Origin: a virus
Taxonomy: Duplodnaviria > Heunggongvirae > Uroviricota > Caudoviricetes
DNA length: 19,731 nt
IMG/VR virus record: IMGVR_UViG_2802429241_000007
Span: 1 to 19,731 of that record
Direction: 5' to 3' (one strand)
The notes below the pieces were generated by a model that searched no databases, was not told the DNA's origin, and saw only the letters and a list, made by a program, of their open reading frames with translations. Made by a program: the position numbers and the translations under genes. Below are positions 2,217 through 19,731 of the stretch, piece by piece. The stretch's first letter is position 1; every line of letters starts with the position of its first letter.

Positions 2217-2224
2217 ATTTATTC

Positions 2225-3375: not shown

Positions 3376-3394
3376 GTGCTTTCCCCGCCTCGCC
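3376..3394 (-). other. cos-like cohesive-end site (P2/P4 type)
   Basis: gtgctttccccgcctcgcc is the reverse complement of GGCGAGGCGGGGAAAGCAC, which I recall as the 19-nt P2/P4 cohesive end. It is followed by the GC-rich dyad ccgcccgctttgcggggcgg. Position between psu and the cargo genes matches the P4 map. Confidence 0.6.
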
Positions 3395-3495
3395 CGCCCG
3401 CTTTGCGGGGCGGTTTTAATGCAGTTGCACTGACACGCTCAGACCGCGCCGGGAATGGTGCGGTCTGCAGAAAATGAGGCAGGAAAACGCATGCA

Positions 3496-3528
3496 AAGCC
3501 ATGCACCTTATCGATGCATGGCTTTTTT
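3496..3528 (+). terminator. Rho-independent terminator-like hairpin between cos and psu
   Basis: Perfect 10-bp stem AAGCCATGCA / TGCATGGCTT with a 9-nt loop, followed by a T-run on the plus strand. It may also act on read-through in the other direction. Confidence 0.45.
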
Positions 3529-3558
3529 CAGTAAAAACGGGAGGATTTTCGGGGAATT

Positions 3559-4131
3559 TTACACAGACTGACGTGATGCCAGTTGCGCACTTTTACGCGA
3601 AAAAATCATGTTCTGCGCAGGGGTGAATTTTTCACGGCTGTCATCCACCGAAGCCGCGTCAGGCCTGAATCCGATGGTCGTTAAAATGTCGCTATCCTGT
3701 GCGGAATAATTAATTTTTTCACCCTTCGCAAGCCAGGACAGGAGGGCTTCACGCAGGGCATCTGTGGCACGCTGTATGGCACAGTTTCGGGCAATGGCCG
3801 TCAGCTCACTGTAGCCCATCAGCTCCGGTGCCAGTGCCGCCGCCAGTGCTGTGCCGTGCTGCTGCATAAAATCATTCAGCCGGTCGCGGATGCTGATGTG
3901 CTGAACGGCTTCATGCGAACGAATATAACGACCGGCGGCCTGATTCACCTGCCATTTTCTGACTTCGATAATATTGCGTAATTCGTCCAGGCGGCTGACG
4001 TTTCTGCCTTCTCCTGACAGAAGCCGCAGATATTCCTGTTCGGCCGCTGCCAGCTCATTTTTGCGTTGCAGCCATGCTGCTTTGTTATTCTGACAGGTGT
4101 CAAAGGCCTGCTGTAAGGCTGTGCTTTCCAT
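3559..4131 (-). CDS. psu: Psu-like polarity suppression / capsid decoration protein
   Basis: 190-aa ORF starting MESTALQQAF, last gene of the sid-delta-psu block next to cos. Length and position match P4 Psu as I recall it. Confidence 0.8.
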   Translation of the reverse strand: MESTALQQAFDTCQNNKAAWLQRKNELAAAEQEYLRLLSGEGRNVSRLDELRNIIEVRKWQVNQAAGRYIRSHEAVQHISIRDRLNDFMQQHGTALAAALAPELMGYSELTAIARNCAIQRATDALREALLSWLAKGEKINYSAQDSDILTTIGFRPDAASVDDSREKFTPAQNMIFSRKSAQLASRQSV

Positions 4132-4204
4132 CGTTATCTCTTTCTCATCATGCTGAAGAATAAAAATACGGTGTGCGGCGACGGCCGGGGTTAACCGGCA
4201 GCCC

Positions 4205-4705
4205 TCATTCCAGACGCAGCGAATATGATTGTGTTTTTAACCGTACTGGCGGCAGTTCCTGTTTTTCATGCAGGCGTTCTGCCAGTTCGTCCGGCGTGAC
4301 CGGGCGGACAATGAAGCGGGTGATGGTCTGAAGCGTTTTAAACACCAGACCACAGCCCGGATCCGTGCACACATAAAAACGCTCGGTGACTTCCTGAGAC
4401 AGACGCCGCGATGTTCTTGACAGCGCAAGGCCTTTACATCTCCGACAACAATATCCGGTAACAAGCATTCTTTTCGGGCGTTTCATACTGCCGGAGGCCG
4501 ACGTCAGTGAATCGCGGTATCTCTGTTTGCCTGAAATGTATTCCATTCCTGAATCTTTACTGTCAGAGAAAAAGCTTTCACTCGCTTCAAATGTCGCAGA
4601 GCAATAAATATTCCGGCACTGTGCAATCATTATCTTGGTGCCATCGTCCATGAAATGTGCGCGACGGGTGTGAGCAACATGTCCACACGACGGGCAGTAA
4701 ATCAT
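4205..4705 (-). CDS. delta: Delta-like late transcription activator (tandem Ogr-type zinc-finger domains)
   Basis: 166-aa ORF with two Cys-rich modules (CPSCG...C...C near the N-terminus, CCRRCKG and CTDPGCG further on). Start ATG overlaps the sid stop (ATGA). Confidence 0.8.
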   Translation of the reverse strand: MIYCPSCGHVAHTRRAHFMDDGTKIMIAQCRNIYCSATFEASESFFSDSKDSGMEYISGKQRYRDSLTSASGSMKRPKRMLVTGYCCRRCKGLALSRTSRRLSQEVTERFYVCTDPGCGLVFKTLQTITRFIVRPVTPDELAERLHEKQELPPVRLKTQSYSLRLE

Positions 4706-5436
4706 GACAGCAGTCCTCTGGCCTTAAGCTCTGCTCCCTGCTGGTCTATTTTGTCCTGCCACACCTTGCGCTGTGCCGGTGTGCCTGCCACCTCATAATC
4801 CATGTGCGGGAGTGTTGCCGCTGACAGTCCGGCCAGCCGGAGAACCGGCTCGCCGGTGAGGCTGATTTGCATCTGTTTAATTTTCTGTTCCAGCGATGAT
4901 TTCACCTGCTGCATGACAGCCTTATCGGGTGCGACGTAGCCCTGATGGCCGGTGGTGTTGGCGAGCGGATTTTCCTGTACCAGGATACTCAGATGCATTG
5001 CCCGGACAAGCGCCTCACAGGTTTCATTCAGGGCGTGTTCCAGCTCATGCTCTGCATACAGACTCAGAAGGTGATGATGTGCCTTCCGGTAGGCGGTGGC
5101 CGTGCTGTCACACGCCCCTTTCAGGCGTTCACGTTCGAAATTCAGCACCACGGCCAGATTGTCATATTCCTGTACCAGCTCCCGGCGTGCCACGCGCTCA
5201 ATGTGGCGCTGTTTCAGCTCGTCGCTCAGGACACCACCGGCTGCACGAAAGGCCGTGCGCCAGTCGTCAGCGTCGTTTCCGTCGGCCTGCGCCAGCGCAT
5301 TTTTTTCCTGCTCTGCCCGTTCAATGGCCGTGACGGTCTCATCCATCAGGCGGGCGTTCTCAAGATGGGCGGCTCTGGCCTTTTCCAGTTGTGCCAGCGC
5401 GGGTTGCAGATATTCAGGGATGGTGTTGTCAGACAT
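4702..5436 (-). CDS. sid: Sid-like capsid size-determination (external scaffold) protein
   Basis: The track ORF starts at GTG 5454. I place the start at ATG 5436..5434 (MSDNTIPEY...), which has a GAGGAG Shine-Dalgarno and gives 244 aa, the size I recall for P4 Sid. Ala/Glu/Leu-rich helical composition. Confidence 0.8.
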   Translation of the reverse strand: MSDNTIPEYLQPALAQLEKARAAHLENARLMDETVTAIERAEQEKNALAQADGNDADDWRTAFRAAGGVLSDELKQRHIERVARRELVQEYDNLAVVLNFERERLKGACDSTATAYRKAHHHLLSLYAEHELEHALNETCEALVRAMHLSILVQENPLANTTGHQGYVAPDKAVMQQVKSSLEQKIKQMQISLTGEPVLRLAGLSAATLPHMDYEVAGTPAQRKVWQDKIDQQGAELKARGLLS

Positions 5437-5470
5437 TTTCCGGCTCCTCGTCACTTCAGGTTAAGAAAAT

Positions 5471-5526
5471 TGTGACGTACACCGGACAACAACACGACGC
5501 ATTGCAGATGTGCCAGCCCTGACACA
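5471..5526 (-). promoter_or_regulatory. Candidate Psid late promoter with two TGT-N12-ACA activator dyads
   Basis: TGT-N12-ACA at 5471..5488 and 5509..5526, centred about 38 bp apart. This fits the -18 and -55 arrangement I recall for Delta/Ogr-dependent P4 late promoters if transcription starts near 5462, just upstream of sid. Confidence 0.45.
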
Positions 5527-5605
5527 GGAGACTCATCCTCAGACCGGCAAGCCAGGAAAAGGTCGCAGGAAAAACCTGCTTACTGTTTGTTTTTTTATGT
5601 TTTAC

Positions 5606-5709
5606 TGTTCACCTCTGTTCACCATAAGAAAAAAGATAAGTAATACAGTAAGTTAAAGGGTGAACAATCGCAGTAATGACTGTTCACCGTCTGTTCACCA
5701 CTGTTCACC
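5606..5709. repeat. Iteron cluster (TGTTCACC octamers), ori-like alpha-binding region
   Basis: TGTTCACC at 5606, 5616, 5681, 5692 and 5702, plus an inverted copy GGTGAACA at 5659. The same octamer recurs in the crr-like repeats after alpha. I recall this as the P4 type I iteron. Confidence 0.6.
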
Positions 5710-5867
5710 CGTTGATGAGCTTTTTGTGCTGTTTATTACTGTTTATTTTTATTAATTCACTGAAATAAATAAGAAAAAACAATTTGTATTTCACTATAAT
5801 TTTTTCCAGCTCCTTCCAGAGCGTTTTAAAGCTATCTGGCGCTGATGTGCAAAAAACACACAGCCAT

Positions 5868-5885
5868 TGTAAGGCTGCCGGAACA
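5868..5885 (+). promoter_or_regulatory. Candidate late-left promoter activator site upstream of vis
   Basis: TGT-N12-ACA dyad (tgtaaggctgccggaaca) about 100 bp upstream of the vis-like ATG. No clean second dyad at -18. Confidence 0.3.
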
Positions 5886-5987
5886 AATCCCCCCTGTTGC
5901 GTCTGCCAAAAATATTCACAAAATAAAGCGCTACCCGAAGCCGGACGGACTTATCCGGTGCTGTATGGACATTAACGAGGTAGCCCG

Positions 5988-6254
5988 ATGCAAGCTGTTT
6001 TTTCTTCCCCGTCTCCCGCCCCTGTGACGCCACTGATGCCGCTGCCGGACATCACGCAGGAGCGTTTTTTACGTCTGCCGGAAGTGATGCACCTGTGCGG
6101 CCTGTCACGCTCGACCATCTACGAACTCATCCGTAAGGGGGAATTTCCGCCGCAGGTGAGTCTTGGCGGTAAAAATGTGGCCTGGCTGCACTCTGAAATC
6201 ACCGCATGGATGGCCGGGCGCATTGCCGGACGCAAACGGGGGTACGACGCATGA
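5988..6254 (+). CDS. vis: Vis/AlpA-family small DNA-binding regulator (excisionase-like HTH)
   Basis: 88-aa ORF with the HTH core [30 protein letters not shown] typical of AlpA/Vis regulators. ATG preceded by GAGG. The 88-aa length matches P4 orf88 (vis) as I recall it. Confidence 0.7.
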
Positions 6255-6289
6255 TGATGCCCGCTCTGCAAAAAGTCCCTTTTTCTGGC

Positions 6290-6319
6290 TTGCCTTTTTC
6301 CGGCATTTGCGGATATAGT
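6290..6319 (+). promoter_or_regulatory. Candidate sigma70 early promoter (PLE-like)
   Basis: TTGCCT (6290..6295), 18-bp spacer, TATAGT (6314..6319), oriented toward the early operon and upstream of the repeated leader elements. Confidence 0.3.
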
Positions 6320-6346
6320 TTTTCCGCTGTCGCAAAATCGGCAGCC

Positions 6347-6625
6347 GGGCGTAGGAACCCGTGTAACTCGAAGGCGACATATGACGCGCCATGCGTCTTT
6401 TTTTGTGTCGCAATCAACGCCACAGAGCGCCAGATTATGGTTTGCCGTGCAGGTATGATCCTGTTCGCAATCGCATGTTATGCCACTGAGTCAATGGTAG
6501 CTCAGGCGGGGCAGCCTCCGGGCTGGCCGGTATTCTTCGAGGCCGGTATTCCTACCCCCGTCTGGGCTATCGCCATCGAGCGTAGGAACTCCGGCGATAG
6601 CAGTTATTTGCTACTCGAAGGAGAC
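6347..6625 (+). ncRNA. Candidate RNA-immunity leader (seqA / seqB / seqC-like elements, CI-RNA-like region)
   Basis: GTAGGAAC...CTCGAAGG occurs twice (6349..6374 and 6580..6623). Between them, CTTCGAGGCCGGTATTCCTAC (about 6538..6556) is complementary to both arms. The second copy overlaps the Shine-Dalgarno of the first early ORF. Confidence 0.35.
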
Positions 6626-6631
6626 TGCCTT

Positions 6632-6829
6632 ATGGCTACAACCCTTACCCCCTCACACCCTGAATTTGTCTTTGTGTTTGCGGCTGTCCGTCGCGCAGAC
6701 CGTCATCCCCGTATCTGCATGCTTCGCACCGTCGCCGGTGATGAACGCAGTGCCCGCCGTTCCCTTGTCCGTGACTATGTGCTCTCCCTTGCTGCCCGTC
6801 TGCCGGTGGTGGAGGTGTCCCGTGCGTAA
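6632..6829 (+). CDS. Small hypothetical protein (65 aa), first ORF of the early operon (kil-like position)
   Basis: ATG at 6632 with AAGGAG Shine-Dalgarno 8 nt upstream. The long track ORF 6206..6829 is otherwise implausible because it runs through the RNA-leader region. Confidence 0.35.
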
Positions 6830-7109
6830 TAAAAAAGCCCCTCAGACCGTCTCAGCGCGTCATGACGCCCGTGAACACCTCAGCATTGAGGCTTACCATA
6901 AGCTCAACCGCGCCAGCGCCGTATCCCAGTTTGTTGGGGGTGATTTGATTCACCGTGAACTCTCCGGCCTGCATCAGCTCTACATTCCGCATATTTTCAG
7001 CTACCTGAATGAAGATATTGATTTTGTGCTGAATGAGCTGAAAACCAAAGGCCTGTGCCGCGATTTTCTCGCCCAGCAGAAAGACCGGGGAGACAGGACG
7101 CATGTTTGA
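6822..7109 (+). CDS. Hypothetical 95-aa protein (epsilon-like by position and size)
   Basis: GTG start at 6822 with GGAGG 6 nt upstream. The start overlaps the preceding stop and the stop overlaps the next start (translational coupling). Confidence 0.45.
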
Positions 7110-7557
7110 TTTTCCCCAGCCCGGTGAGATTTACCGTTCTGCCGGTTTTCCCGATGTGGCCGTGGTCGGCATTCTGGAAGACGGTATTCCGTGGGAAATG
7201 CCGTACCGCTGCCCGGACATTGTCTGGAACCCGTACCGCCGTAAATTCAGTATCCTTGTGCGTATCCTCGCTGACGGGCGCACCACAGACATCCCGCTGG
7301 GGCGTTTTCTGCGGGAATTTACCTGTGACCGTCCTGACCTGTTCAAACGCAGCCCCGTAAACCGGCATGCGGTACTGAAAGAAATGGCCGGAGACCCGGA
7401 ATTACAGAAATGGCGGGAGAAATATCTGGATATTTACCCGCAGGACCCTGTTCCGGTCAGCCGGGCGGCACCGGTGGCGCGGGAATGGCGGGAAATTCCC
7501 CGCACGGAGCCTGACCCGGAAATCACCCCGGATAACAGTTACCGCAATTATCTGTAA
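7102..7557 (+). CDS. Hypothetical 151-aa protein (same size and position as P4 orf151)
   Basis: ATG at 7102 overlapping the upstream stop, GGAG upstream. No motif recognised. Confidence 0.6.
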   Translation: MFDFPQPGEIYRSAGFPDVAVVGILEDGIPWEMPYRCPDIVWNPYRRKFSILVRILADGRTTDIPLGRFLREFTCDRPDLFKRSPVNRHAVLKEMAGDPELQKWREKYLDIYPQDPVPVSRAAPVAREWREIPRTEPDPEITPDNSYRNYL

Positions 7558-7692
7558 TTAAAAAACGACACCCGAAAAATTAAATGTGCGTATTCGCGCA
7601 GGGATACGCACGTCTTCAGGAGACGCAGATATGCCTTATCAGTTAATGCAACCGGCACGGAATGCAGTCATCTGTCACAGGGAGGAAAGCAA

Positions 7693-8013
7693 ATGAAAAC
7701 ACCCTTACCGCCCGTCTTACGCGCAGCCCTTTACCGTCGCGCTGTCGCCTGTGCCTGGCTGACCGTGTGCGAACGTCAGCACCGCTACCCGCATCTCACC
7801 CTTGAATCACTGGAGGCGGCCATCGCCGCTGAGCTGGAAGGCTTTTATCTGCGCCAGCACGGTGAGGAAAAAGGGCGTCAGATAGCCTGTGCCCTGCTGG
7901 AAGATTTAATGGAATCCGGCCCCCTGAAGGCCGCGCCGTCGCTGTCCTTTCTCGGGCTGGTTGTGATGGATGAACTCTGTGCCCGTCACATAAAAGCGCC
8001 GGTACTGCACTGA
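7693..8013 (+). CDS. Hypothetical 106-aa protein (same size and position as P4 orf106)
   Basis: ATG at 7693 with GGGAGG Shine-Dalgarno. Immediately upstream of alpha. Confidence 0.6.
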
Positions 8014-8027
8014 AGGAGAACAACACC

Positions 8028-10361
8028 ATGAAAATGAACGTAACCGCCACCGTCAGCCATGCGCTCGGCCACTGGCCGCGTATTCTCCCGGCACTGGGGA
8101 TTCAGGTGCTGAAAAACCGTCATCAGCCCTGTCCGGTCTGTGGCGGGAGTGACCGCTTCCGTTTTGATGACAGGGAGGGGCGCGGCACCTGGTACTGCAA
8201 TCAGTGTGGTGCCGGTGACGGCCTGAAACTGGTTGAAAAGGTGTTTGGTGTCTCCCCGTCCGACGCGGCCGCAAAGGTGGCTGCCGTGACAGGCAGCCTG
8301 CCCCCGGCTGACCCGGCAGTGACGGCTGCCGCCGTTGCTGAAACAGAAGCTGCCCGGAAGAACGCTGCCGCACTGGCACAAACCCTGATGGCAAAAACCC
8401 GTCCCGGAACCGGTAACGCCTACCTGACCCGCAAGGGCTTTCCCGACCGGGAATGCCGGATGCTGACCGGCACACACAGAGCCGGTGGCGTGAGCTGGCG
8501 CGCCGGTGACCTTGTGGTGCCACTGTATGACGACAGCGGCGAACTGGTTAACCTTCAGTTAATCAGTGCTGACGGCCGTAAGCGCACCCTGAAAGGCGGA
8601 CAGGTCAGGGGCACCTGTCACACCCTTGAAGGACAGAATCAGGCCGGAAAACGTCTGTGGATAGCGGAGGGATACGCGACCGCACTTACCGTGCATCACC
8701 TGACCGGTGAAACGGTGATGGTGGCGCTTTCTTCCGTGAACCTCCTTTCTCTGGCCAGCCTTGCCCGGCAGAAGCATCCGGCCTGTCAGATTGTCCTTGC
8801 CGCAGACCGTGACCTCAGCGGTGACGGCCAGAAAAAAGCCGCCGCAGCCGCAGATGCGTGTGAGGGCGTTGTTGCCCTGCCGCCGGTCTTCGGTGACTGG
8901 AATGATGCCTTCACGCAGTACGGCGGGGAAGCCACCCGTAAGGCCATTTACGATGCCATCCGGCCACCGGCTGAAAGCCCGTTCGACACCATGAGCGAAG
9001 CGGAGTTTTCCGCCATGAGTACCAGCGAAAAGGCCATGCGTATCTATGAGCATTACGGCGAGGCGCTCGCGGTCGATGCCAACGGCCAGCTTCTGTCCCG
9101 CTATGAAAATGGTGTCTGGAAGGTGCTGCCGCCACAGGACTTTGCCCGGGATGTGGCCGGGCTGTTTCAGCGGCTGCGTGCGCCGTTCTCCTCCGGGAAG
9201 GTGGCCTCCGTGGTGGACACCCTGAAGCTGATTATTCCGCAGCAGGAAGCCCCCTCCCGCCGCCTGATTGGCTTTCGTAACGGTGTGCTCGACACACAGA
9301 ACGGCACGTTCCACCCGCACAGTCCGTCACACTGGATGCGTACCCTGTGCGATGTGGATTTCACCCCGCCGGTGGAAGGGGAAACGCTGGAAACCCACGC
9401 TCCCGCGTTCTGGCGCTGGCTTGACCGTGCTGCCGGTGGTCGTGCGGAAAAACGCGACGTGATTCTGGCCGCACTGTTTATGGTGCTGGCAAACCGCTAC
9501 GACTGGCAGCTCTTTCTGGAGGTGACCGGTCCCGGCGGCAGCGGCAAAAGTATCATGGCCGAAATAGCCACCCTGCTGGCCGGGGAGGATAACGCCACGT
9601 CGGCCACCATCGAGACGCTGGAATCCCCGCGTGAACGTGCCGCGTTAACTGGCTTCTCACTGATACGCCTGCCGGACCAGGAAAAATGGAGCGGCGACGG
9701 TGCCGGACTCAAGGCCATCACCGGCGGCGATGCGGTGTCCGTTGACCCGAAATACCGGGATGCGTACTCCACGCACATCCCGGCGGTGATTCTGGCCGTG
9801 AACAATAACCCGATGCGCTTCACCGACCGCAGCGGCGGCGTGTCACGCCGGCGGGTGATTATTCACTTCCCGGAACAGATAGCCCCGCAGGAGCGCGACC
9901 CGCAGCTTAAGGACAAAATCACCCGCGAGCTGGCGGTCATCGTGCGTCACCTGATGCAGAAGTTCAGCGACCCGATGCTCGCCCGGTCACTGCTTCAGTC
10001 CCAGCAGAACTCAGACGAGGCACTGAACATCAAACGGGATGCCGACCCGACGTTTGATTTTATCGGCTATCTGGAAACCCTGCCGCAGACCAGCGGCATG
10101 TATATGGGGAACGCCAGTATCATCCCGCGTAATTACCGTAAATACCTCTATCACGCCTATCTGGCCTACATGGAGGCAAACGGCTACCGGAATGTACTCA
10201 GTCTGAAAATGTTCGGGCTGGGGCTGCCGGTGATGCTGAAGGAATACGGACTGAATTACGAGAAGCGCCATACCAAACAGGGGATACAGACCAACCTGAC
10301 GCTGAAAGAGGAAAGCTACGGCGACTGGCTGCCAAAATGTGACGACCCTGCAACAACCTGA
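8028..10361 (+). CDS. alpha: Alpha-like replication protein (zinc-binding primase, TOPRIM, helicase with Walker A)
   Basis: 777-aa ORF with AGGAG Shine-Dalgarno. N-terminal CPVCGG...CNQCG zinc motif and Walker A GPGGSGKS. Length matches P4 alpha as I recall it. Iterons on both sides. Confidence 0.9.
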   Translation: MKMNVTATVSHALGHWPRILPALGIQVLKNRHQPCPVCGGSDRFRFDDREGRGTWYCNQCGAGDGLKLVEKVFGVSPSDAAAKVAAVTGSLPPADPAVTAAAVAETEAARKNAAALAQTLMAKTRPGTGNAYLTRKGFPDRECRMLTGTHRAGGVSWRAGDLVVPLYDDSGELVNLQLISADGRKRTLKGGQVRGTCHTLEGQNQAGKRLWIAEGYATALTVHHLTGETVMVALSSVNLLSLASLARQKHPACQIVLAADRDLSGDGQKKAAAAADACEGVVALPPVFGDWNDAFTQYGGEATRKAIYDAIRPPAESPFDTMSEAEFSAMSTSEKAMRIYEHYGEALAVDANGQLLSRYENGVWKVLPPQDFARDVAGLFQRLRAPFSSGKVASVVDTLKLIIPQQEAPSRRLIGFRNGVLDTQNGTFHPHSPSHWMRTLCDVDFTPPVEGETLETHAPAFWRWLDRAAGGRAEKRDVILAALFMVLANRYDWQLFLEVTGPGGSGKSIMAEIATLLAGEDNATSATIETLESPRERAALTGFSLIRLPDQEKWSGDGAGLKAITGGDAVSVDPKYRDAYSTHIPAVILAVNNNPMRFTDRSGGVSRRRVIIHFPEQIAPQERDPQLKDKITRELAVIVRHLMQKFSDPMLARSLLQSQQNSDEALNIKRDADPTFDFIGYLETLPQTSGMYMGNASIIPRNYRKYLYHAYLAYMEANGYRNVLSLKMFGLGLPVMLKEYGLNYEKRHTKQGIQTNLTLKEESYGDWLPKCDDPATT

Positions 10362-10377
10362 CCCTCATGACCCACCT

Positions 10378-10402
10378 GACCGGCATCTGCCGGTCTTTTT
10401 TT
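10378..10402 (+). terminator. Rho-independent terminator after alpha
   Basis: GACCGGC-ATCT-GCCGGTC stem-loop followed by TTTTTTT, 17 nt after the alpha stop. Confidence 0.65.
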
Positions 10403-10418
10403 ATCCCTGAATTCCCCG

Positions 10419-10512
10419 CAGGTGAACAATCCACTGTTCACCCTTCACCGTATATTCACCCGTTATCACACTGAAATTAAAAGAGAAAAACGAAAGGTGA
10501 ACAGTGTGAACA
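10419..10512. repeat. crr-like direct repeat, copy 1 (iteron-containing)
   Basis: 94-bp unit beginning caggtgaacaatccactgttcaccc and ending gaaaggtgaacagtgtgaaca. Contains TGTTCACC/GGTGAACA octamers. Confidence 0.65.
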
Positions 10513-10598
10513 ATCAAATCAAAAAAAACTTTTTTCTTCCTGAGTGATTTCAGTACGGGGGATTAATCACCGGTATGAGTCACACCGGCAGAATGCCG

Positions 10599-10692
10599 GA
10601 GGTGAAGAATCGAATGTTCACCCTTCACCCATTATTCACCACCTATCACTATGAAATAAAAGGAGAAAAAAGAAAGGTGAACAGTGTGAACA
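10599..10692. repeat. crr-like direct repeat, copy 2
   Basis: 94-bp unit closely matching copy 1 (gaggtgaagaatcgaatgttcaccc...gaaaggtgaacagtgtgaaca). Confidence 0.65.
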
Positions 10693-10906
10693 GTTCTTCC
10701 GAAAAAAAATTTTTTATGTGGATAAAAGATGCACTGGTTTGGATCCGAACTACGGATCCAAACTTACTGATTAAAAATTATTTAACTTTCCGATTTGTTG
10801 ATGGGCTGAAAATAGATTGGTCAGAAAAACAGTGGGGGCACAAAAGGGGGCATATTTCATTGTTGTGTTTTATTATTTGTTTTTTATCATTGACTTATTT
10901 TGATGT

Positions 10907-10927
10907 TTGAGTCCGGCCTTCGCACCA
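10907..10927 (+). other. att-like partial repeat of the tRNA-Leu 3' end (distal boundary of the satellite)
   Basis: GTTTGAGTCCGGCCTTCGCACCA closely resembles the 3' end of E. coli tRNA-Leu leuX (GGTTCGAGTCCGGCCTTCGGCACCA, from memory), the P4 integration target. Two differences, so either a degenerate copy or imperfect recall. Confidence 0.5.
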
Positions 10928-11560
10928 TACCGTATGCAAATCGAGTCGCTCAAGGGCGGCTTTTTTTGTATATAAAATCTAGTATCCGTAAGGCTTTCCT
11001 CGCTTTTTCACGTAACCTAAGTCAGCCAACTTTAATCTACATTAACTTATTGATGGCGAGTGCCTCTGCTGGTATTTCCCGGTTAGATAATATTTGTTCT
11101 CACACGAACCCTCTGAAAGGATATTCATTGTGGCTCTGAGTGATGTGAAAGTTCGTTCGGCAAGGTCTGAGTAAAAGCTTATAAACTACCGGATAGTGAA
11201 CTATTAATAAAAGCGATACGGGGCTATCTGGAATACCCCGGCAACATGCCGCTGCCTGAACAGATTACAAATGTCGCTGTATTCGAAGATGTGTATCGTT
11301 TCCTGTTGAATGGTTCCGGTGGCTGGAGCTGCGCCGTACTGATGTGGCAGCAGTCCGTGTCTTCCTTTAGAATTATCGATATCGCCATTGTGATGCAATA
11401 GGTAAACCGCAGCGCCTCATTTCTGCCGTGTGCCGGATCATTGCTATCGAACCAGGCACCAACGTGCTGTAGTACATCGTTCTGCTAATGATGCGGAGAG
11501 GGGATATGTATCGTAAGAATTATTTTGTAATAAATCTAATGAATCCAACATAGGGTAAGA

Positions 11561-11595: not shown

Positions 11596-12849
11596 TTATC
11601 TTTTATTTATCTTATCTAAAAGATGTACCACAGATTTGCCAACAGCAAATGACAGATTAACAGGAACAGCATTTCCTATTTGCTTATATTTCGCTGACAT
11701 TGGGCCTTCAAATACCCAGTCATCGGGGAAGGTCTGTATTCTTGCATACTCACGCACAGTTAATGGTCTTGTTTCTTCTGGGTGGCAACGCTCTGTTTGT
11801 TTCTGTGCTGGGGCGCATGTTAATGTTAGGCTTGGTTCATCCCATGACAAGCGACGAGCCATACCAGTTTTGCCCCCTCCTAAGTAAAAACTCTTGAGCA
11901 TGTATTCTTTTTGAATATCTTCTGGAAGATCTCTCCAATAGCCACCGGGAGGAACCATACTTAGGATCTCTGCTTTTCTTTTGGGATATTTTTGTCCCTC
12001 AGATTCTGGCACGTCGCTATCGTACAAGTCTCCCTTTTTTAATGCATCTTTAAGGGTTAATATTTTATTGTAAGAAGAAGGCCACTCATAATCGATGCCA
12101 TCAGCAAGATCATTTCTTACAGCTACAATGATCAAACGCTCTCGTTTTTGCGGCACTTTGTAGAAAATAGCCTTAAGTACTCTTGGCTCAAATAAAGTGT
12201 AGCCCAAGTCTGTGATAATATTTTTTATTGTTTCTAAAGTTCGCCCATCATCATGATTTAGCAACCCTCGAACATTCTCTGCTAAAAGAACTTTCGGATT
12301 GACTTCTTTAGCTGCTCGGGCGAATTCAAAGAAAAGGGTGCCCCGTGTGTCTTCAAAACCAAGTTTTTTGCCTGCATAAGAGAATGCCTGGCAAGGAAAG
12401 CCACCAGCCAGCACATCAACGGTATTCCTATAAGGAGTGAAGTCTACTTGGCTCACATCGCCTTCAACCACATTCCATTCAGGCCTATTTTTTCGTAACG
12501 TCTTACAAGCATGGGAGTCAATTTCATTTAGTAAAACAGATTTTAAACCTGCTTTTTCCAAACCTAAAGCCATCCCCCCTGCGCCAGCAAATAACTCTAA
12601 TACAGTATAAACATTATTGCTAATTTTAGTCTCATCAGACCACTGGCTTTTAAATAAAAACTGAGCTTGTTCAAAATTTTTAAGTTGCTCTTTTTTATAA
12701 AATCGATAGTTGTTTTCGTCATTTCTTTGAGAAACTAATTTTCCAGCAGTATCCCAACGCCTTAAAGTTTCTTTTGAAACACCCAAAATGTCTGCAACTT
12801 CTGAAAGTGAAAATTCTTCCTTTAACATATTTAGTAACCATGCCAACAT
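11596..12849 (-). CDS. DNA (cytosine-5)-methyltransferase with N-terminal HTH domain
   Basis: Canonical C5-MTase motifs: I LFAGAGGMALG, IV GFPCQAFS, VI ENVRGLL, VIII QKRERLIIV, X GNAVPV. N-terminal roughly 50 aa looks like a MerR-type HTH (SLSEVADILGVSKETLRRWDTAGKL). Start may be ATG 12849 or the ATG 21 nt downstream (MLKEEF). Confidence 0.85.
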   Translation of the reverse strand: MLAWLLNMLKEEFSLSEVADILGVSKETLRRWDTAGKLVSQRNDENNYRFYKKEQLKNFEQAQFLFKSQWSDETKISNNVYTVLELFAGAGGMALGLEKAGLKSVLLNEIDSHACKTLRKNRPEWNVVEGDVSQVDFTPYRNTVDVLAGGFPCQAFSYAGKKLGFEDTRGTLFFEFARAAKEVNPKVLLAENVRGLLNHDDGRTLETIKNIITDLGYTLFEPRVLKAIFYKVPQKRERLIIVAVRNDLADGIDYEWPSSYNKILTLKDALKKGDLYDSDVPESEGQKYPKRKAEILSMVPPGGYWRDLPEDIQKEYMLKSFYLGGGKTGMARRLSWDEPSLTLTCAPAQKQTERCHPEETRPLTVREYARIQTFPDDWVFEGPMSAKYKQIGNAVPVNLSFAVGKSVVHLLDKINKR

Positions 12850-12908
12850 TAGTCATGGTTACTACTGTATGAGTTTACATGTACTTTGTCAAACGTTGAT
12901 CATGGTTA
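12833..12908. promoter_or_regulatory. Candidate operator: CATGGTTA boxes around the methyltransferase start
   Basis: AGTAACCATG (12833..12842) and CATGGTTACT (12854..12863) form a 10-bp inverted repeat with an 11-bp spacer that contains the ATG at 12849. A third CATGGTTA box lies at 12901..12908. Confidence 0.35.
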
Positions 12909-13628
12909 TCAGCCGTAAGCGAGCCCAAAATACTTAATAAAACTATCTTTATCAGGGATGGAAAAGCCTTGCTGCCCAAGACGCTCGCTCAAAATATACT
13001 CAATTGCGTGAGGAAGAGCACTATGGAGTTCTTGTAGAGCATCTGGTCTGCCTGTGACAAGTTCATAGAAGCTCGCACCATCAATGATTCGAATTTTAGG
13101 GTTCGAAGGACACAGAGTACCGCTACCTTTATTGGAAGGGGTAAAAGGGATGTCATATCTGATAGGTTTACGAGGGATTATATTAACAAAGTACGCGCAG
13201 TAATCCTTAAATCGGCTATGTTTCGGTGATACTAACTCATCTAAACCTTTATACTTATCTGCTAAATCCCCGCCAGTAACCGTTGAGTATTTATTTTTCA
13301 CCTCAGCGATGATTCTTCTCTCTTCATTGAGAAGATCAACGATGCCACCAATCCCCATATCCCGCCATCCTTCAACATGGCCGAGGATTTTTTGGTGAAA
13401 AGTACCAACATGATTTTGAATGGTTTTCTGTCGTTGTCGTGCGAGTTCGGAGTTTCGCCACTCTTCATGGGATGAGAACCCTGGAGCTTCAAAAAGTGCG
13501 CCAAAAGGGTCAATCACATTGCTGGTAAAAGTCTTCTCAGCGGCGTCTTTTTTCTTTTTAGCTTTCGTTAATAAGGTTTCAACTTCGTTAAAAAGATCTT
13601 CATCACTGATATATTCAAGTAATGACAT
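12909..13628 (-). CDS. Putative type II restriction endonuclease (PD-(D/E)xK-like), upstream partner of the methyltransferase
   Basis: 239-aa ORF with ATG at 13628 and GGAG upstream, co-directional with and 59 bp upstream of the C5-MTase. Candidate catalytic core IVD...(12 aa)...AEVK is consistent with PD-(D/E)xK. AT-rich. Confidence 0.5.
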   Translation of the reverse strand: MSLLEYISDEDLFNEVETLLTKAKKKKDAAEKTFTSNVIDPFGALFEAPGFSSHEEWRNSELARQRQKTIQNHVGTFHQKILGHVEGWRDMGIGGIVDLLNEERRIIAEVKNKYSTVTGGDLADKYKGLDELVSPKHSRFKDYCAYFVNIIPRKPIRYDIPFTPSNKGSGTLCPSNPKIRIIDGASFYELVTGRPDALQELHSALPHAIEYILSERLGQQGFSIPDKDSFIKYFGLAYG

Positions 13629-14662
13629 AGTTGTATCTCCATCATTCTTTATAATTCAATAAATTTTTCGCGTAATAACCTTTGGGAGCTATTGTGGTTA
13701 CGGCTAATTACACGACAGCTCTCAAAAACGACACTGGAGCAAGTTTTCTAATCATAACGATTACAGACATAGATTAAAACGATCAATGAGCACTTAAAGA
13801 GAGGGGGGGTTGTGGTGTGATCTGAATGGCTTGTGCTGAGGATTCGAGCAATATGTTACGGGGATAGGGGATTGAAGTGGCACACTGAATTTGGCTACCT
13901 GAACAGAGGTGATATGCTCACCTCTGAATCTGCTCGTTGATTTTGTTCAGCAAACTATTGAGCAGGAAATACAACGTTACGGCAACCAGTACCGCAGTTT
14001 TGCGTGTCACCAGTTGATGAGTTAAAAATGGGAGAGGATGAGTTGGCGAATAATCCTCTCTACCAGATACGCTATCAGCAGTTTGTTTCTCCAATGGTGT
14101 ATGGAGAACGAAAGATCACATGGGATGAGGCTTACTCCAGGTTTAGGAGCTTAGCGTTAGCCATCCTGAATGCTTGATATGCAGCATTTGTCTTTATTTG
14201 AAATTCCGATAAACATCGTGAAGCGTTAAAGTACCGACTGATTATTCAGTTTGTTGATTTTTCAGAGAATCGCGCTGAGTATACATGTGAATATACAAAG
14301 TGATTTTGGCTATGAAATCACATTTATTTCAATGAGTTATCTTTTAAAGAGCAGCCCAGTCTTCACATCAATAGACGTCAACTGAGGTCTTTTTTTATGC
14401 CTGAAATCCGCGCCACACAAATCTTTTCCGCTGTTTTTTCCAACTAACGTCAACCTGGTTCAATCCATATTAAATCCCTGAAGAATACCGAACCAAGTAT
14501 GTTTGCGCTTATCTATTAAGGATTCGGCTCTTTCAGAAAATCTAATCCATCCTCCAGGCACAATATTTATTGCGATCGTGCTCGCATCGTGGACAATGTT
14601 TAATCATAAGTAATATTTACATCAATGAAATCAATGATTTCTATTATGTCACGGAATGGAAA

Positions 14663-17600
14663 ATGGACAGCAATACATTGGGATTCACTTCATACTGGCG
14701 CAACTCCTTAGCTGACGCCGAATCTGGTAAAGGAACGTTTTCACGTAAAGATACAGATTCATTCATTCGATGGATAAATATCACCACAGGGAAGTTGGAT
14801 GACGAGACTATTCGGGCATTTTTTGACGGTGAAGGGGAGTCGGTAAAAACCGTTGAAGTCGTGTTACGGCCCCAAGTGTGGAACCGCATAGTAAAGCATG
14901 GCAAAGAGCAAATGGCAGATGTACCCGCAATTATCACGCCACTGGTTACCTCCGCTCTTCTGAATAGGGAAGGTTTTTTGTTTCCTGCCGCTTCAGCCAC
15001 TATTCCCCGCGATCTGCTTGAACCTCTCCCTTCCGGTCATTTTTCTATTGGTGAGTTGGCGCAATATGACAAATACAAAACCACGCATAACACAGCCACC
15101 ATTAATGAAGATGACCCAGAACATTACGAAGAAACTGACGAAGAGAAAGCGGAACGCCATGCCAGGTATCGTCAGCATTGGCAAAATTATCTTCAACAGT
15201 CAGATAACCTTTTAAGAAACGTCACTGGAAATTGGGTCGCTACATCTGAGCCATACGAACGGGCTGGATACGGTTATATTGTTAAAGCTAGCCAGCATGT
15301 AGGGGCCAGCGTTCATATCCTGCCTATGTATGACCATCTTCTGATGAGCCAGGTTAAGGTTCCGCTATTAACGCGTTTTGCCTCAAACGAAATGGCTCCA
15401 GTGGAGCCACTTCTCGCTAAGAATGCGATGTTCTGCGAACGTTTGGGGCATTCCGGCGATAAGTTTCCGCTGGCAGTGGCGCAGCGCGATGCCCTGAGCC
15501 ATTATCTGACTCAACAGCAGGGTGATATGCTCGCTGTCAACGGTCCTCCGGGAACGGGTAAAACTACGCTGGTGCTTTCTATTATTGCCACCGAATGGAC
15601 AAGAGCCGCACTTAATCAAACTGAACCTCCTGTAATCATTGCCACATCGACTAACAATCAGGCCGTCACCAATATTATTGAAGCCTTTGGAAAAGATTTC
15701 TCTACTGGTTTTGGCGTAATGTCTGGGCGTTGGTTGCCGGAGGTAATAAGCTATGGCGCTTATTTTCCGTCTAAAAGCCGTCTGGTTGAGGCAGCGAAGA
15801 AATACCAGACTGGAGATTTTTTTAACCGCGTTGAATCCCAGGAATATCTGGAAAAAGCCCGGGCCTTTTACCTTGAAAAAGCGGAGGCGGCGTTTGGAGC
15901 TGGAGAGTACAATTCGCCAGAGCATGTAGTGACGCTTTTGCATGAACGTTTAACTTCACAGTTTATGCAACTTCAGCAAATCGAACCCGCATGGCGCAGA
16001 CTCAATGATATCCGCCATGAACAGCGAGTCATCAGTGAGAATCTCGACCAGTATCTTCAGGACAAAAACACACTTCTTCTCAATATTGGCAATGAAATTT
16101 CACTTTTAGTCAGAGGTAAAAAGCAGTGGCAGCAATACCGTGCCAATGAGTCGCTTATGTATGCATTTTTGTCATGGCTCCCTGCTGTTCGTGCTAAACG
16201 CCATTACCAGATTAACCTCTTCCTGGACTCTACGTTCGGCGCAAGAATGACAGCGTTCCAGGGAAATTGTCCCGAAGATATTGATAAATTTATCGATAGT
16301 TTGATCGCTAAAGCGCAACAAGAGCAGGCGGTGTGCCAACAGAATATCAACTTTGCGCAGGACATAGCCCGACGTGAAGTGGAAGCAGCAAAACAATGGC
16401 ACGAGTTGACTTATGCGCTGGGCTACAGGGGATGCGATGAGCTGAACCTCGCCGGCGCGGACGAGCTTGCCGATACTCAGATTCGTTTTCCTGCGTTCTT
16501 GCTAGCGACTCATTATTGGGAAGGTCGCTGGCTGATGGATATGGCGACAATCGATAATCTGCAAAAAGAAAAAGGACTCACTGGGGCGATTAGTGTCAAG
16601 GCCCGATGGCGAAGAAGAATGAAACTTACCCCCTGTGTGGTGATGACCTGCTACATGTTGCCTTCTCAAATGATAACGGGGAAATTTGTCGGAGGTGCCA
16701 GGCAATTTGATAATGATTATTTATATAACTTTGCTGATTTACTGATCGTCGATGAAGCAGGGCAGGTGCTCCCGGAGGTTGCTGCGGCTTCCTTTGCATT
16801 AGCTAAGAAAGCGCTGGTAATAGGCGATACAGAACAAATAGCACCAATCTGGAATTGTCTGCCTGTCACCGATATAGGCAATATGCTGGAGGAGAACATT
16901 CTTTCTGGCGACACTCAGGAAGAGCTAATGAATGCATATTCCCATGTGTGTGAGTCTGGAAAAAGTGCGGCATCCGGCAGCGTGATGAAAGTTGCTCAGT
17001 ACAATTCTCGCTACCAATATGATCCCAAGTTCGAGCGCGGAATGTATCTGTATGAGCATCGTCGCTGTTTCAATAACATCATCGGCTACTGTAACTCACT
17101 TTGCTATCACGGTAAGTTGCAGCCCAAAAGAGGAATGGAAAAAGAGACGATTTTCCCGGCAATGGGGTTTTTGCATATTGACGGCAGGGGCATGAAGCCA
17201 AATGGAGGTAGCCGTTATAACCCTCTTGAAGCGGAAACAATTGCAGCATGGCTGGTGGCGCATAAGGATGGTATAGAGCGCCATTACGGGGAACCGCTGT
17301 ATAAAGTCGTTGGTATTGTGACGCCATTTTCGGCACAGGTTAATGCCATCAAGACGTCATTGCGTAAGCTGGAGATTAATTGCAATGACGAAGAGGGTTC
17401 GCTGACCGTGGGGACTGTGCACTCCTTGCAGGGTGCGGAAAGGGCGATTGTTCTCTTTTCTACGGTCTATTCAAAACATGAAGATGGTCAGTTTATTGAC
17501 AGCAATAGCAGTATCCTGAATGTCGCAGTCTCACGCGCTAAAGATAGTTTTCTGGTCTTCGGTGATATGGACCTTATAGAGATGCAGCCAGCATTTTCGC

Positions 17601-18178
17601 CGCGAGGGTTATTGGCAAAATTTCTGTTTGCTTCAGATAATAATGCGTTGCAATTTGAGTTTCAGAAACGGCAGGATTTAAGTTCCGCACAGACACAAAT
17701 TTCAACGTTGCATGGTGTGGAGCAGCATGATGAATTTTTGAATAATGCTCTGGCCGCAGCTCAACAGAAGATCACGATTATTTCCCCTTGGTTATCCTGG
17801 CAAAAAGTGGAGCAAACGGGTTTTCTTGCGTCGATGGCTCTGGCCCGTTCCCGGGGTATTGATATTACCGTGGTAACGGATAAAAACTGCAATATTGCGC
17901 ATGTCGATGATGATAAGCGCCAGGAGAAACTGCATCTTCTAAATGATGCAGTCGAAAAGCTCAATAATATGGGCATTGCTACAAAATTGGTGAATCGCGT
18001 TCACAGCAAAATTGTGATTAGAGATGAGGAGTTGCTGTGCGTTGGATCTTTTAACTGGTTCAGTGCTGCGCGAGAAGATAAATATCAACGATACGATACG
18101 TCTTTGGTGTACCGTGGCGAAGGCGTAAAAAATGAAATAAAGGCGATATATAGCAGTCTGGATCAACGTCAGCTATAA
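14663..18178 (+). CDS. Upf1-like SF1 helicase fused to a C-terminal PLD-family (HKD) nuclease domain; candidate single-gene defence protein (Mokosh type II-like)
   Basis: Walker A GPPGTGKT (15542..15565), Walker B DEAGQ (16751..16765), helicase motifs [28 protein letters not shown] and [18 protein letters not shown]-terminal HSKIVIRD-x6-GSFN is a textbook HxK-x4-D-x6-GSxN PLD signature (18002..18055). The track ORF starts at TTG 14570; the first in-frame ATG is 14663. About 290 aa N-terminal to Walker A (from ATG 14663) has no motif I recognise. Confidence 0.8.
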
Positions 18179-18684
18179 GTGTGATGAACAGTTCACAACA
18201 CAGGAGTGGTAAGGGATATATTTTAACAATGTGAAGGCGACTTTCAGATTTATTGCGAGTCGCTTTTCCTGATTTTCAATCTTATTGTTTACCTAATCAT
18301 TCTCCTTTGCATAATGCGCCTGGCATTAACGACAGGGGCTTTTAGGAATGAAAGCAGATACAACAATGGCCTAATGTCTTCGGCCCGTATTAAGCATATC
18401 ATCATTGTCTAATTGCCAGAATCCATCGCCTTGTAATCGCCAGAACGGCATATCAGGCCGATACTGCGAATGCTGTGATCCAAAACGTTCCAGTAAACTG
18501 TGCAGAGGTTCGTAGATTTCCGAGCCATAATCGAAAAGGCGTGGATGTCCATGCTGGTAGCCAGCCAATACGTATAGCAGTAACAGAGGTTTATGTGGCG
18601 CGCGCTGTTCACCCTTGTGCCAGATTTTTATGTTGGCAATTGCCTGCTGTTCAAACCCGCAAGCGAAGATATATTACCTTGATC

Positions 18685-19731
18685 TCATTTGTTTTTTTGT
18701 TGCCTGTTCTGAGAACGTATAAGAGTATCTCCCATGAATAAACTCCCCGACCACCTTTCGCACCAATACCGCAAAATAGCTTCAACAAATTTGTCAGAAA
18801 TAATCCCCCGACGGGCTGCTGAGCTGAAATGACTGCTGCGTAGCACCGTCGTCCAGTTTTCTGGTGTTCGGTACGCTGAACCGTAATATCCCGTGCTAAA
18901 ATCGTCCGGATCTTCATCTGGCTCGTTCGTCAGCCCTCTTTCACCTTGTTGCTGGAAGCCGACGAAAATAATATTGGCTAAGGCATTATTTTTATAATTG
19001 CCATAAATCGTTTCATACGCATGAGAGTAATTTTCTTTCCAGTACCAGGTGGTATCGCCGCAAAACCACGGAGCGGCAGCAATATTATTAAGCTGAGAAC
19101 GATACTGTTTCAAATCCTCACGAAAGGCTTCAACCATATGATTAAAGTATTGAGGATGTAACGCGTAGTCACTGGTCATTAAGTCAAATTCGCCCTGCAT
19201 CCAGCATATGCCGAGGAATTTATTCTGCGGATTCTTTGACAGTGCCGTTCGTGTTCTGTTGACTAAATCCTGATACAGCGGAGTATCCGCTCCCCAACGA
19301 CATGAATCATGGCTGGCTCCGTGCTGTTCTGAATATGTCCCTTCGCTGCCCGTGGTAAAAGCCGATCCACCACGGCAACAGGGAACGATAAGAACGCCTG
19401 CATTATCAGGAATGAAGGGCAGTAATTTCCGCGCAATATGTAGTGCCTGGCCAACGGTGCCGTACTGTGTTTGATGATTCGTTGCCAGAGGATGGTGATA
19501 ACCCTGCATATCCTGGACATCGTGTGGGCAGTGAGTCAGTGGAATAATGTCATTAAATTGACATAACGGGCCACCGGGATGCGTCTGAGTGAATCTCGCC
19601 AGTTGTTTTATTCTGGGATGAGGCGCATCTTCACTGTCTGGTAACGGGAGTCCTTCGCCATACGCCATAGCATTAGACTGACCGGCAACGGTAAGAACAT
19701 AGTAATAATCGGGCGATATTATTGCGTTCAT
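18685..19731 (-). CDS. nanS: NanS/YjhS-like sialate O-acetylesterase (SASA/SGNH-type)
   Basis: 348-aa ORF with ATG at the window edge. N-terminus MNAIISPDYYYVLTVAGQSNAMAYG carries the GQSN esterase motif and matches E. coli YjhS/NanS as I recall it. Chromosomal backbone gene. Confidence 0.75.
   Translation of the reverse strand: MNAIISPDYYYVLTVAGQSNAMAYGEGLPLPDSEDAPHPRIKQLARFTQTHPGGPLCQFNDIIPLTHCPHDVQDMQGYHHPLATNHQTQYGTVGQALHIARKLLPFIPDNAGVLIVPCCRGGSAFTTGSEGTYSEQHGASHDSCRWGADTPLYQDLVNRTRTALSKNPQNKFLGICWMQGEFDLMTSDYALHPQYFNHMVEAFREDLKQYRSQLNNIAAAPWFCGDTTWYWKENYSHAYETIYGNYKNNALANIIFVGFQQQGERGLTNEPDEDPDDFSTGYYGSAYRTPENWTTVLRSSHFSSAARRGIISDKFVEAILRYWCERWSGSLFMGDTLIRSQNRQQKNK

Follow-up and report, generated by a model that had tools for sequence, protein, structure and literature searches.

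We put at roughly 0.85 the probability that the open reading frame at positions 14663-18178 of the analyzed window, a stretch of 19,731 nucleotides, is the mkoC (yjhR) gene, encoding a single-protein Mokosh type II system whose motor engages single strands of the invader and whose PLD domain cuts. In the proposed mechanism, an ATP-driven motor of the Upf1-like SF1B type would engage single-stranded nucleic acid of the invader, for which candidate targets include the genome of an ssDNA phage and a replication or transcription intermediate. The C-terminal PLD (HKD) phosphodiesterase would then cut the engaged strand, and the infection would be stopped.

The gene corresponds to a single intact frame on the plus strand, with 1171 codons followed by a stop codon at 18176-18178 and a product of 132.14 kDa (calculated mass). 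The longest frame (14570..18178) begins with a TTG; we placed the start at the ATG at 14663, which yields 1171 aa, because M1 and the next residues align with the starts of homologous proteins. By our own arithmetic, the chance of a stop-free frame of 1171 codons is about (61/64)^1171, or about 4e-25. The earlier note had claimed that one protein of about 1170 aa combines an Upf1-like SF1 helicase with a C-terminal HKD motif, and the length of the frame, the Pfam matches and the motifs all agree with this description. The features of the gene and its flanks are as follows.

14370..14662, plus strand: 5' non-coding stretch, conserved in the intact allele of E. coli N1420 (blastn), probably promoter-bearing
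14663..18178, plus strand: mkoC / yjhR coding sequence (ORF and translation; full-length PADLOC MkoC match; identical NCBI protein)
14663..15466, plus strand: N-terminal domain, residues 1-268, kept across the family
15542..15565, plus strand: Walker A / helicase motif I, GPPGTGKT, residues 294-301
15713..16702, plus strand: long helical insertion in RecA1, residues ~351-680 (~330 aa), at the position of Upf1-type accessory domains (DSSP on the model)
16703..17632, plus strand: remaining RecA1 and RecA2, residues ~681-990, Pfam AAA_12
16751..16765, plus strand: Walker B / helicase motif II, DEAGQ, residues 697-701
16951, plus strand: start of DNA homology to K-12 (blastn); everything 5' of this point is absent in K-12
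17648..18175, plus strand: C-terminal PLD-family nuclease domain, residues 996-1171 (PLDc_2, PLDc, PADLOC MkoB and DrmC)
18002..18055, plus strand: HKD catalytic motif, residues 1114-1131, the sole conserved HKD in the protein
18233..18267, plus strand: hairpin with a trailing T-rich run, 55 nt past the stop codon (RNA fold)

The family assignment is based on the PADLOC MkoC profile PDLC03924, which matched residues 1-1169 with profile positions 1-1135 of 1136 (E=0, 1466.4 bits). This full-length call, together with the presence of helicase and PLD nuclease in one gene, bears out the Mokosh type II architecture that had been proposed. The type I profiles matched only RecA2 and the PLD part (MkoA at residues 692-986, MkoB at 1001-1139), the related parts that MkoC has in common with Mokosh type I, whereas neither the N-terminal domain nor the first helicase half was matched by the type I MkoA profiles. 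Type I consists of two genes, of which MkoA bears a serine-threonine kinase domain (bioRxiv 10.1101/2022.05.11.491447); in contrast, MkoC of the window is a single gene, and its protein had no Pfam match to a kinase family. At E<=1e-30 the family includes 1098 clusters of 50% identity, with collinearity to the window protein extending down to about 30% identity. Some relatives, 970-1005 aa long, are without the PLD domain. An identical protein is present in NCBI under the name "helicase YjhR [Escherichia marmotae / Escherichia]"; in the assembly collection, 113 indexed blocks contain it, of which we read 24 contigs. The Mokosh type II system and name, the profile HMM, this protein sequence and the connection to K-12 yjhR were public already, so that the discovery value is low: the finding is correct but ordinary, since the exact protein is catalogued and close E. 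coli relatives have been assayed.

Both the ATP-binding motifs and the HKD site of the PLD domain are intact in the window protein. Its helicase part was recognized by the Pfam families AAA_11 (6.4e-14), AAA_12 (6.3e-22, residues 795-969) and AAA_30; AAA_11 and AAA_12 span residues 273-969, on the N-terminal side of the nuclease match in the same frame. We counted residue conservation in 73 family members, which have 28-95% identity with the window protein. In Walker A, K300 is kept in 72 and G297 and G299 in all 73 relatives; in Walker B, D697 and E698 are kept in 72; and in RecA2, Q923 and G924 are invariant while R958 is found in 72. Walker A and DEAGQ are separated by the insertion of about 330 aa, which in the model contains helices at residues 393-411, 419-457, 461-494, 507-529, 537-585 and 596-629 (DSSP). 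No Pfam family was found for residues 351-680 beyond a chance-level match to MraZ (E=0.043, below its cutoff), and we dropped the MraZ identity.

The full-length AF2 model (pLDDT 89.4, pTM 0.83) was compared with the PDB by Foldseek, and the top matches, with probability 1.00, were Senataxin (6.5e-18), Aquarius, IGHMBP2, UPF1, DNA2 and ZNFX1. A phmmer search gave weak matches to the same Upf1-like helicases and found no solved structure close in sequence. In the model, the helicase part is thus an Upf1-like SF1B fold, and from family membership it would be expected to translocate 5' to 3' on single-stranded nucleic acid. This helicase fold is common to MkoC and the eukaryotic Upf1-like SF1B proteins (SETX/Sen1, UPF1, IGHMBP2, Aquarius, ZNFX1 and MOV10L1; Foldseek E from 1e-13 to 6.5e-18), but sequence identity is only 10-14% and the accessory domains differ. 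The pairing of a helicase with a PLD nuclease (PLD6/Zucchini) recalls the piRNA pathway, although in eukaryotes these are separate proteins. DNA2 (Foldseek 4e-14), like MkoC, combines an SF1B helicase and an ssDNA nuclease in one polypeptide. However, the nuclease of DNA2 lies at the N-terminus and is of the PD-(D/E)XK type, with an iron-sulfur cluster, rather than a C-terminal PLD domain, and DNA2 is an enzyme of repair and replication rather than a defense system.

Domain searches assigned the C-terminus to the PLD nucleases (PLDc_2, 1.6e-10, residues 1028-1141; PLDc, 3e-5, residues 1110-1134) and identified a textbook HKD motif, as had been anticipated. The PADLOC profiles MkoB and DrmC also matched this part, and the Nuc endonuclease (1byr) aligned weakly to the HKD region. 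The motif reads H1114-x-K1116-x4-D1121-x6-G1128-S1129-x-N1131 and is kept in 70-73 of the 73 relatives. We also considered a second HKD, HGKEQMAD at residue 79, which would have made the protein an internal PLD pseudo-dimer, and rejected it: K81 is present in only 24 of 73 relatives and position 86 is mostly G. A structure search with the N-terminal model found no PLD structure, which likewise argues against an internal pseudo-dimer. The number of conserved HKD motifs per chain is therefore one, as in Nuc, BfiI and Zucchini, each of which has a single HxK(x)4D(x)6GSxN motif. These three enzymes are homodimers, in which one active site is built from two HKD motifs.

The attR of the P4-like satellite, a copy of the leuX 3' end, lies at 10907-10928, and mkoC is located 3.7 kb beyond it. 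The earlier note had placed the gene next to the satellite; the proximity is incidental, as the gene lies past attR and the same block also occurs satellite-free. The arrangement of RM system, MkoC and nanS is found without a satellite in other genomes encoding the identical protein, and in each of five loci inspected this protein is located between the leuX-proximal flank and nanS. We therefore rejected MkoC as cargo of the P4-like satellite: it is not enclosed by attL and attR, and the block exists elsewhere without the satellite. The gene is part of a chromosomal defense islet at the leuX flank: it directly follows a type II RM system, what is left of a type IV (phosphorothioate-dependent) restriction enzyme lies downstream, and the adjacent satellite carries Kiwa. 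Mokosh II was reported to co-localize with RM IV in E. coli (bioRxiv 10.1101/2022.08.21.504612); in the window this usual type IV restriction partner has decayed, and deletion has already removed the neighboring genes for type IV restriction and HNH.

DNA homology to E. coli N1420 begins at window position 14370, about 293 bp 5' of the ATG. A promoter scan gave one weak match (9/12) at 14590-14617, with a total number of matches no higher than in shuffled sequence. Downstream of the gene, folding of the RNA at 18170-18330 gave an 11-bp outer stem for the hairpin (z = -2.0 for the whole stretch), and a simple terminator scan made no call there; the hairpin is a possible intrinsic terminator.

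Strain K-12 carries only a truncated yjhR at the equivalent locus, between the leuX island and nanS-fim, as the earlier note had stated; it is an annotated pseudogene, frameshifted and missing its N-terminus. The alignment of the window protein to the K-12 gene (tblastn) covered residues 759-832 in one frame and 827-1171 in another, and nothing else, with the frameshift near residue 830. Since only residues 759-1171 are retained, K-12 has lost both Walker motifs along with the N-terminal domain. At the DNA level, window positions 16951-19731 matched the K-12 locus at 89.3% identity (blastn). Both genes occupy the same place upstream of nanS-nanM-nanC-fim (the KpLE2/leuX island region in K-12), and the same decayed restriction gene is found downstream. 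The K-12 remnant diverges by about 10% in DNA from both the window allele and the intact N1420 allele, while the nanS-fim flank of K-12 and N1420 is 97.6% identical, so that K-12 descends from a different allele lineage. The proposal that the window holds the intact ancestral gene therefore holds only in part: the window copy is intact and orthologous and occupies the same locus, but the K-12 remnant comes from another allele lineage, at about 10% DNA divergence.

The window allele is of the Escherichia marmotae type. The intact E. coli alleles that we compared share 94.5-95% protein identity with it, and the difference of about 5% is located mostly in residues 351-990. Comparison with the E. 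coli alleles gave a dN/dS of 0.17, which shows that mkoC is under purifying selection. The values were 0.32 for the insertion, 0.09 for the remaining RecA1 with RecA2 and 0.09 for the PLD domain, while the N-terminal and first RecA1 segments, with only 8 and 1 substitutions, do not allow a judgment. Among 5426 complete E. coli genomes, 1730 contain any match to mkoC and only 13 contain at least 80% of the gene.

Type II Mokosh was defined in a study in which mutants of the ATP-binding and PLD sites lost defense (bioRxiv 10.1101/2022.05.11.491447). In a later preprint, the purified E. coli protein (EcMokosh II) was a 132-kDa monomer that cut only ssDNA and nicked plasmid, its Walker A and Walker B mutants still cleaved in vitro, and protection was observed only against the ssDNA phage SECphi17 (bioRxiv 10.1101/2025.07.10.664194). 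The substrate panel of that preprint held no RNA, its dsDNA targets, including E. coli chromosomal DNA, remained uncut, and its text and legend conflict on cleavage ('all concentrations' vs 'only at 1 uM'). Our literature search found no paper devoted to Mokosh mechanism or structure. E. coli Mokosh type II, as assayed by Millman et al. 2022 and purified as EcMokosh II, has the same single-gene layout of N-terminal region, Upf1-like helicase and PLD domain. The published constructs comprise M1-A995 and L996-end (bioRxiv 10.1101/2025.07.10.664194), and the window protein, at 132.14 kDa and with A995 and L996 present, fits this domain border. These two residues are invariant or nearly so across the 1171-aa enterobacterial group, and the agreement in mass and at 995/996 points to collinearity with this group, not to identity with EcMokosh II.

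Our own observations comprise the intact architecture, the conserved catalytic residues, the family, the fold, the purifying selection and the location in a defense island. In vivo defense, dependence on the Walker and HKD motifs, the monomeric state and ssDNA-only cleavage come from the papers on closely related or identical E. coli MkoC. The window allele is probably active as well.

About 290 aa precede Walker A, and this N-terminal region had been described as unassigned. Indeed, it had no Pfam match even at E<=10. The domain is conserved across the MkoC family from 95% down to about 30% identity, it was modelled with high confidence, and neither Pfam nor the PDB contains a relative. Its invariant residues include Y11, D18, R116 and P121. 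The domain is a candidate sensor or regulator. Nuc, BfiI and Zucchini are homodimeric, whereas EcMokosh II was measured as a monomer. For a complete active site, the single HKD of MkoC would presumably have to pair with a second one, by transient dimerization on the substrate. ATP hydrolysis would probably be used to find the target or to relieve autoinhibition, and not for the chemistry itself, and the N-terminal domain may take part in this ATP-linked control. We tentatively suggest, as a reading with a minor share of our confidence, that the N-terminal 268 residues form a new fold that acts as a sensor or autoinhibitory module, gating a half-site nuclease with one HKD per monomer, which would need dimerization or a rearrangement by the ATP motor on single strands of the invader. 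If true, this reading would account for an ATPase that is dispensable for cleavage in vitro and yet required in vivo.

Given the lack of RNA among the published substrates, ssDNA may not be the physiological target. RNA could instead be the true one: in the manner of UPF1/MOV10L1 plus Zucchini (PLD6), the motor would track phage transcripts or RNA-DNA hybrids and the PLD domain would cut RNA, ssDNA cleavage being a side activity. Most of the closest solved folds belong to RNA helicases (Senataxin with ssRNA, IGHMBP2 with RNA, UPF1 with RNA, and Aquarius), yet the DNA enzyme DNA2 is also among the matches, and several Upf1-like helicases act on DNA and RNA alike. [quoted passage not shown] However, purified EcMokosh II does cut ssDNA, and the only in vivo target reported with it is an ssDNA phage. 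We consider an RNA target rather unlikely, although it carries more weight than the other alternatives.

Abortive infection, in which the triggered nuclease attacks the DNA or RNA of the host, for instance through nicks in the chromosome or in plasmids, and the cell dies or arrests before phage release, is in our estimate improbable. Plasmid nicking by EcMokosh II would fit it, as would the promiscuity in vitro of many nuclease-NTPase systems, but no dsDNA target was cleaved, E. coli chromosomal DNA included (bioRxiv 10.1101/2025.07.10.664194). Least probable is that mkoC has become inactive or is decaying like the K-12 copy, or that it encodes a housekeeping repair helicase-nuclease without a role in defense. 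The predominance of remnants in E. coli and the deletion of the adjoining type IV restriction and HNH genes agree with decay. In contrast, the intact frame, the complete set of catalytic residues, the low dN/dS and the retention of the identical protein in many Escherichia assemblies (the 113 indexed blocks) all argue against it, as does the experimental validation of the family in defense (bioRxiv 10.1101/2022.05.11.491447, 10.1101/2025.07.10.664194).

As a Mokosh type II system, the protein marks two gaps in the description of this family, namely an N-terminal domain of orphan fold and the presence of just one HKD motif per chain when the measured state is monomeric. An intact Mokosh II has been retained here at the leuX flank of what is probably an Escherichia marmotae genome, whereas nearly all of the complete E. 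coli genomes that carry any copy are down to a remnant, and at least 80% of the gene persists in 13 of 1730. The intact and remnant copies constitute a natural pair for comparing phage sensitivity.

The PADLOC MkoC profile matches the protein encoded by mkoC (yjhR; 14663-18178, + strand) along its whole length (1466 bits, E=0; residues 1-1169, positions 1-1135 of 1136 in the profile), which upholds the assignment to Mokosh type II proposed in the earlier note. The profiles of Mokosh type I gave only partial matches (MkoA, residues 692-986; MkoB, residues 1001-1139), and no NCBIfam equivalog was found for the protein. An identical sequence is present in NCBI, UniRef and ENA under the names "helicase YjhR [Escherichia marmotae]" and "MULTISPECIES: helicase YjhR [Escherichia]", and the identical protein occurs on 65 contigs and in 113 blocks of the assembly index. 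Based on these names, the window is probably E. marmotae DNA, with which its 90-98% identity to E. coli DNA agrees. Thus the earlier observation is confirmed and its interpretation supported, while the system is already known and this exact protein already catalogued and named.

In the ORF scan of the window, the longest open frame is on the + strand (14570..18178); by an arithmetic estimate, the chance of a stop-free frame of this length is about 4e-25. Translation from the ATG at 14663 gives 1171 residues with a calculated mass of 132.14 kDa. Since the N-termini of homologues line up with the first residues (MDxNTQGF...YWRNSLAD), we place the start codon at 14663, exactly where it had been put from the sequence alone. 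Domain searches matched the expected AAA_11, AAA_12 and PLD families, and the protein combines a helicase with a C-terminal HKD nuclease, as previously described, in the following features:

Pfam AAA_11, 6.4e-14
Pfam AAA_30
Pfam AAA_12, 6.3e-22
Pfam PLDc_2, 1.6e-10
Pfam PLDc, 3e-5
Residues 294-301, Walker A, GPPGTGKT
Residues 697-701, Walker B, DEAGQ
Residues 1114-1131 (window 18002-18055), HKD motif, HSKIVIRD-x6-GSFN

We aligned 73 sequences, with relatives 28-95% identical to the window protein, and the residues of both Walker motifs and of the HKD motif are kept in 70-73 of the 73.

The yjhR gene of E. coli K-12 is annotated as a frameshifted pseudogene with a missing N-terminus. Its DNA homology to the window starts at 16951, and the only parts that tblastn recovered are residues 759-832 in one frame and 827-1171 in another; K-12 has therefore kept neither the Walker motifs nor the N-terminal domain, in line with the truncated remnant described in the earlier note. 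Of 5426 complete E. coli genomes, 1730 gave a match, with 80% or more of the gene present in only 13. Strain N1420 has the best E. coli copy, which is annotated "helicase YjhR" and is 95% identical. In its DNA, the remnant of K-12 differs by about 10% from each of the intact alleles (window and N1420), while the adjacent nanS-fim DNA of K-12 and N1420 is 97.6% identical. Of the suggestion that this is the intact ancestral gene, the first half holds: by this comparison the window gene is orthologous and intact, but the remnant in K-12 does not descend directly from it.

Positions 1-10928 are a P4-like satellite inserted at leuX, which is followed by a pair of RM genes:

1-1266, satellite integrase
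1323-2216, - strand, KwaB of Kiwa (6.5e-117)
2225-2740, - strand, KwaA of Kiwa (1.6e-76)
3559-4131, psu
4205-4705, delta
4702-5454, sid-like gene
6326-6403, isrK RNA
6490-6577, C4 antisense RNA
8028-10361, alpha primase-helicase
10907-10928, attR, a degenerate copy of the leuX 3' end that closes the satellite
11596-12849, - strand, C5 cytosine methylase with an N-terminal MerR-type HTH
12909-13628, - strand, Eco47II-family endonuclease

The complete Kiwa pair (1323-2740, - strand) occupies the variable slot between integrase and psu, which in E. coli 2017.09.02CC holds gop/beta instead. Two small satellite ORFs (2938-3249, - strand, 103 aa; 10575-10910, + strand, 111 aa) had no PADLOC match. 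Past attR, the sequence corresponds to the DNA beyond leuX in N1420, and the gene order is the RM pair, a gap of about 1 kb, mkoC, a restriction remnant and nanS. Other genomes that encode the identical MkoC also have the RM pair (11596-13628, - strand) next to mkoC, but it is absent at the N1420 and 2017.09.02CC loci. No convincing gene was found in the 1-kb gap, including the stretch of about 740 bp at 13629-14369 that separates the RM pair from the conserved region upstream of mkoC. Within it, 56 bp (13873-13928) match, in reverse orientation, a site in N1420 where fragments of a transposase gene and a restriction gene meet, probably as debris of former island rearrangements.

At the intact E. 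coli loci (N1420 and 2017.09.02CC), the genes after yjhR are a type IV restriction gene and an HNH gene, both intact, consistent with a published report that Mokosh II and RM IV occur together in E. coli (bioRxiv 10.1101/2022.08.21.504612). In the window this type IV partner is lost: a phosphorothioate-dependent (type IV) restriction remnant of about 250 bp (within 18403-18761) precedes nanS, and the adjoining HNH endonuclease gene is deleted, a pattern of decay shared by K-12. Four of the five identical-protein loci displayed have the RM-MkoC-nanS block immediately next to the leuX flank without a satellite; in the fifth, on a metagenome scaffold, the RM pair is missing too and only MkoC-nanS is present there. 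In E. coli 2017.09.02CC, a different P4-like satellite is followed directly by yjhR. The reported adjacency to the satellite stands; since the block exists without it and mkoC lies beyond attR, however, the satellite, judged from these loci, is a neighbour through insertion and not the carrier of mkoC.

The type II Mokosh system consists of one gene, in which a COG1112 helicase is joined to a PLD nuclease; E. coli is protected by Mokosh systems, and the protection disappears when either the ATP-binding site or the PLD site is mutated (bioRxiv 10.1101/2022.05.11.491447). The purified E. coli protein, EcMokosh II (EcMkoC), cuts only single-stranded DNA substrates and nicks plasmid, its Walker A/B mutants still cleave, and in the phage panel used, the ssDNA phage SECphi17 is the only one against which it gives protection (bioRxiv 10.1101/2025.07.10.664194). 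Its constructs, M1-A995 and L996-end (same preprint), and its mass of 132 kDa agree with the A995/L996 and 132.14 kDa of the window protein, so the two are collinear; A995 and L996 are conserved across the enterobacterial group, and this match is therefore no proof of identity. The motor would find, or be loaded onto, single-stranded nucleic acid of the invader, which the PLD domain would then cut. Since cleavage in vitro proceeds without the ATP hydrolysis that defence in vivo requires, ATP would most likely serve to select the target or to free the protein from an inhibited state. RNA, the target in the original proposal, may yet be the substrate: it is missing from the EcMokosh II substrate panel, and the folds nearest to the window protein in Foldseek are mostly RNA helicases.

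The full-length AlphaFold2 model, built from the 73-sequence alignment, is confident (pLDDT 89.4, pTM 0.83). Given its Foldseek matches in the PDB (Senataxin, 6.5e-18; Aquarius, IGHMBP2, UPF1, DNA2, Sen1, ZNFX1 and nidovirus nsp13), the modelled protein belongs to the Upf1-like SF1B group; no solved structure close in sequence was found. In the model, about 330 residues of long helices split the RecA1 domain, and Pfam found nothing real in this insertion (a lone MraZ match was at chance level).

The MkoC family has one conserved HKD per chain in the alignment. An apparent second HKD at residue 79 (HGKEQMAD, window 14897-14920) fits the regex by chance. In known nucleases with a single HKD (Nuc, BfiI and Zucchini, for example), two chains together form one active site. 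EcMokosh II is nevertheless a monomer (bioRxiv 10.1101/2025.07.10.664194). A tentative reading of this puzzle and of the orphan N-terminal domain (residues 1-268), to which we give a probability of roughly 0.3, is that the domain is a sensor or autoinhibitory module of new fold that gates the nuclease, which would have to dimerise, or be rearranged by the motor, on single-stranded nucleic acid of the invader.

The overall dN/dS against the E. coli alleles is 0.17, and the window gene is therefore under purifying selection. Divergence is mosaic, with residues 1-350 nearly identical to the E. coli alleles (dS of 0.011 for residues 1-270 and 0.017 for 271-350) and a dS of 0.42 for residues 681-990, which suggests that allele lineages recombined inside the gene (14663-18175). 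The family comprises 10,495 clusters at 50% identity (E<=0.001), or 1098 at E<=1e-30, and has members on 65 plasmids. Some relatives (967-1005 aa) stop where the PLD domain would start and have no PLD match; five of these (P0163, P0172, P0174, P0181, P0232) keep the N-terminal domain and helicase. Such proteins may represent a variant of Mokosh II that is split or has no nuclease.
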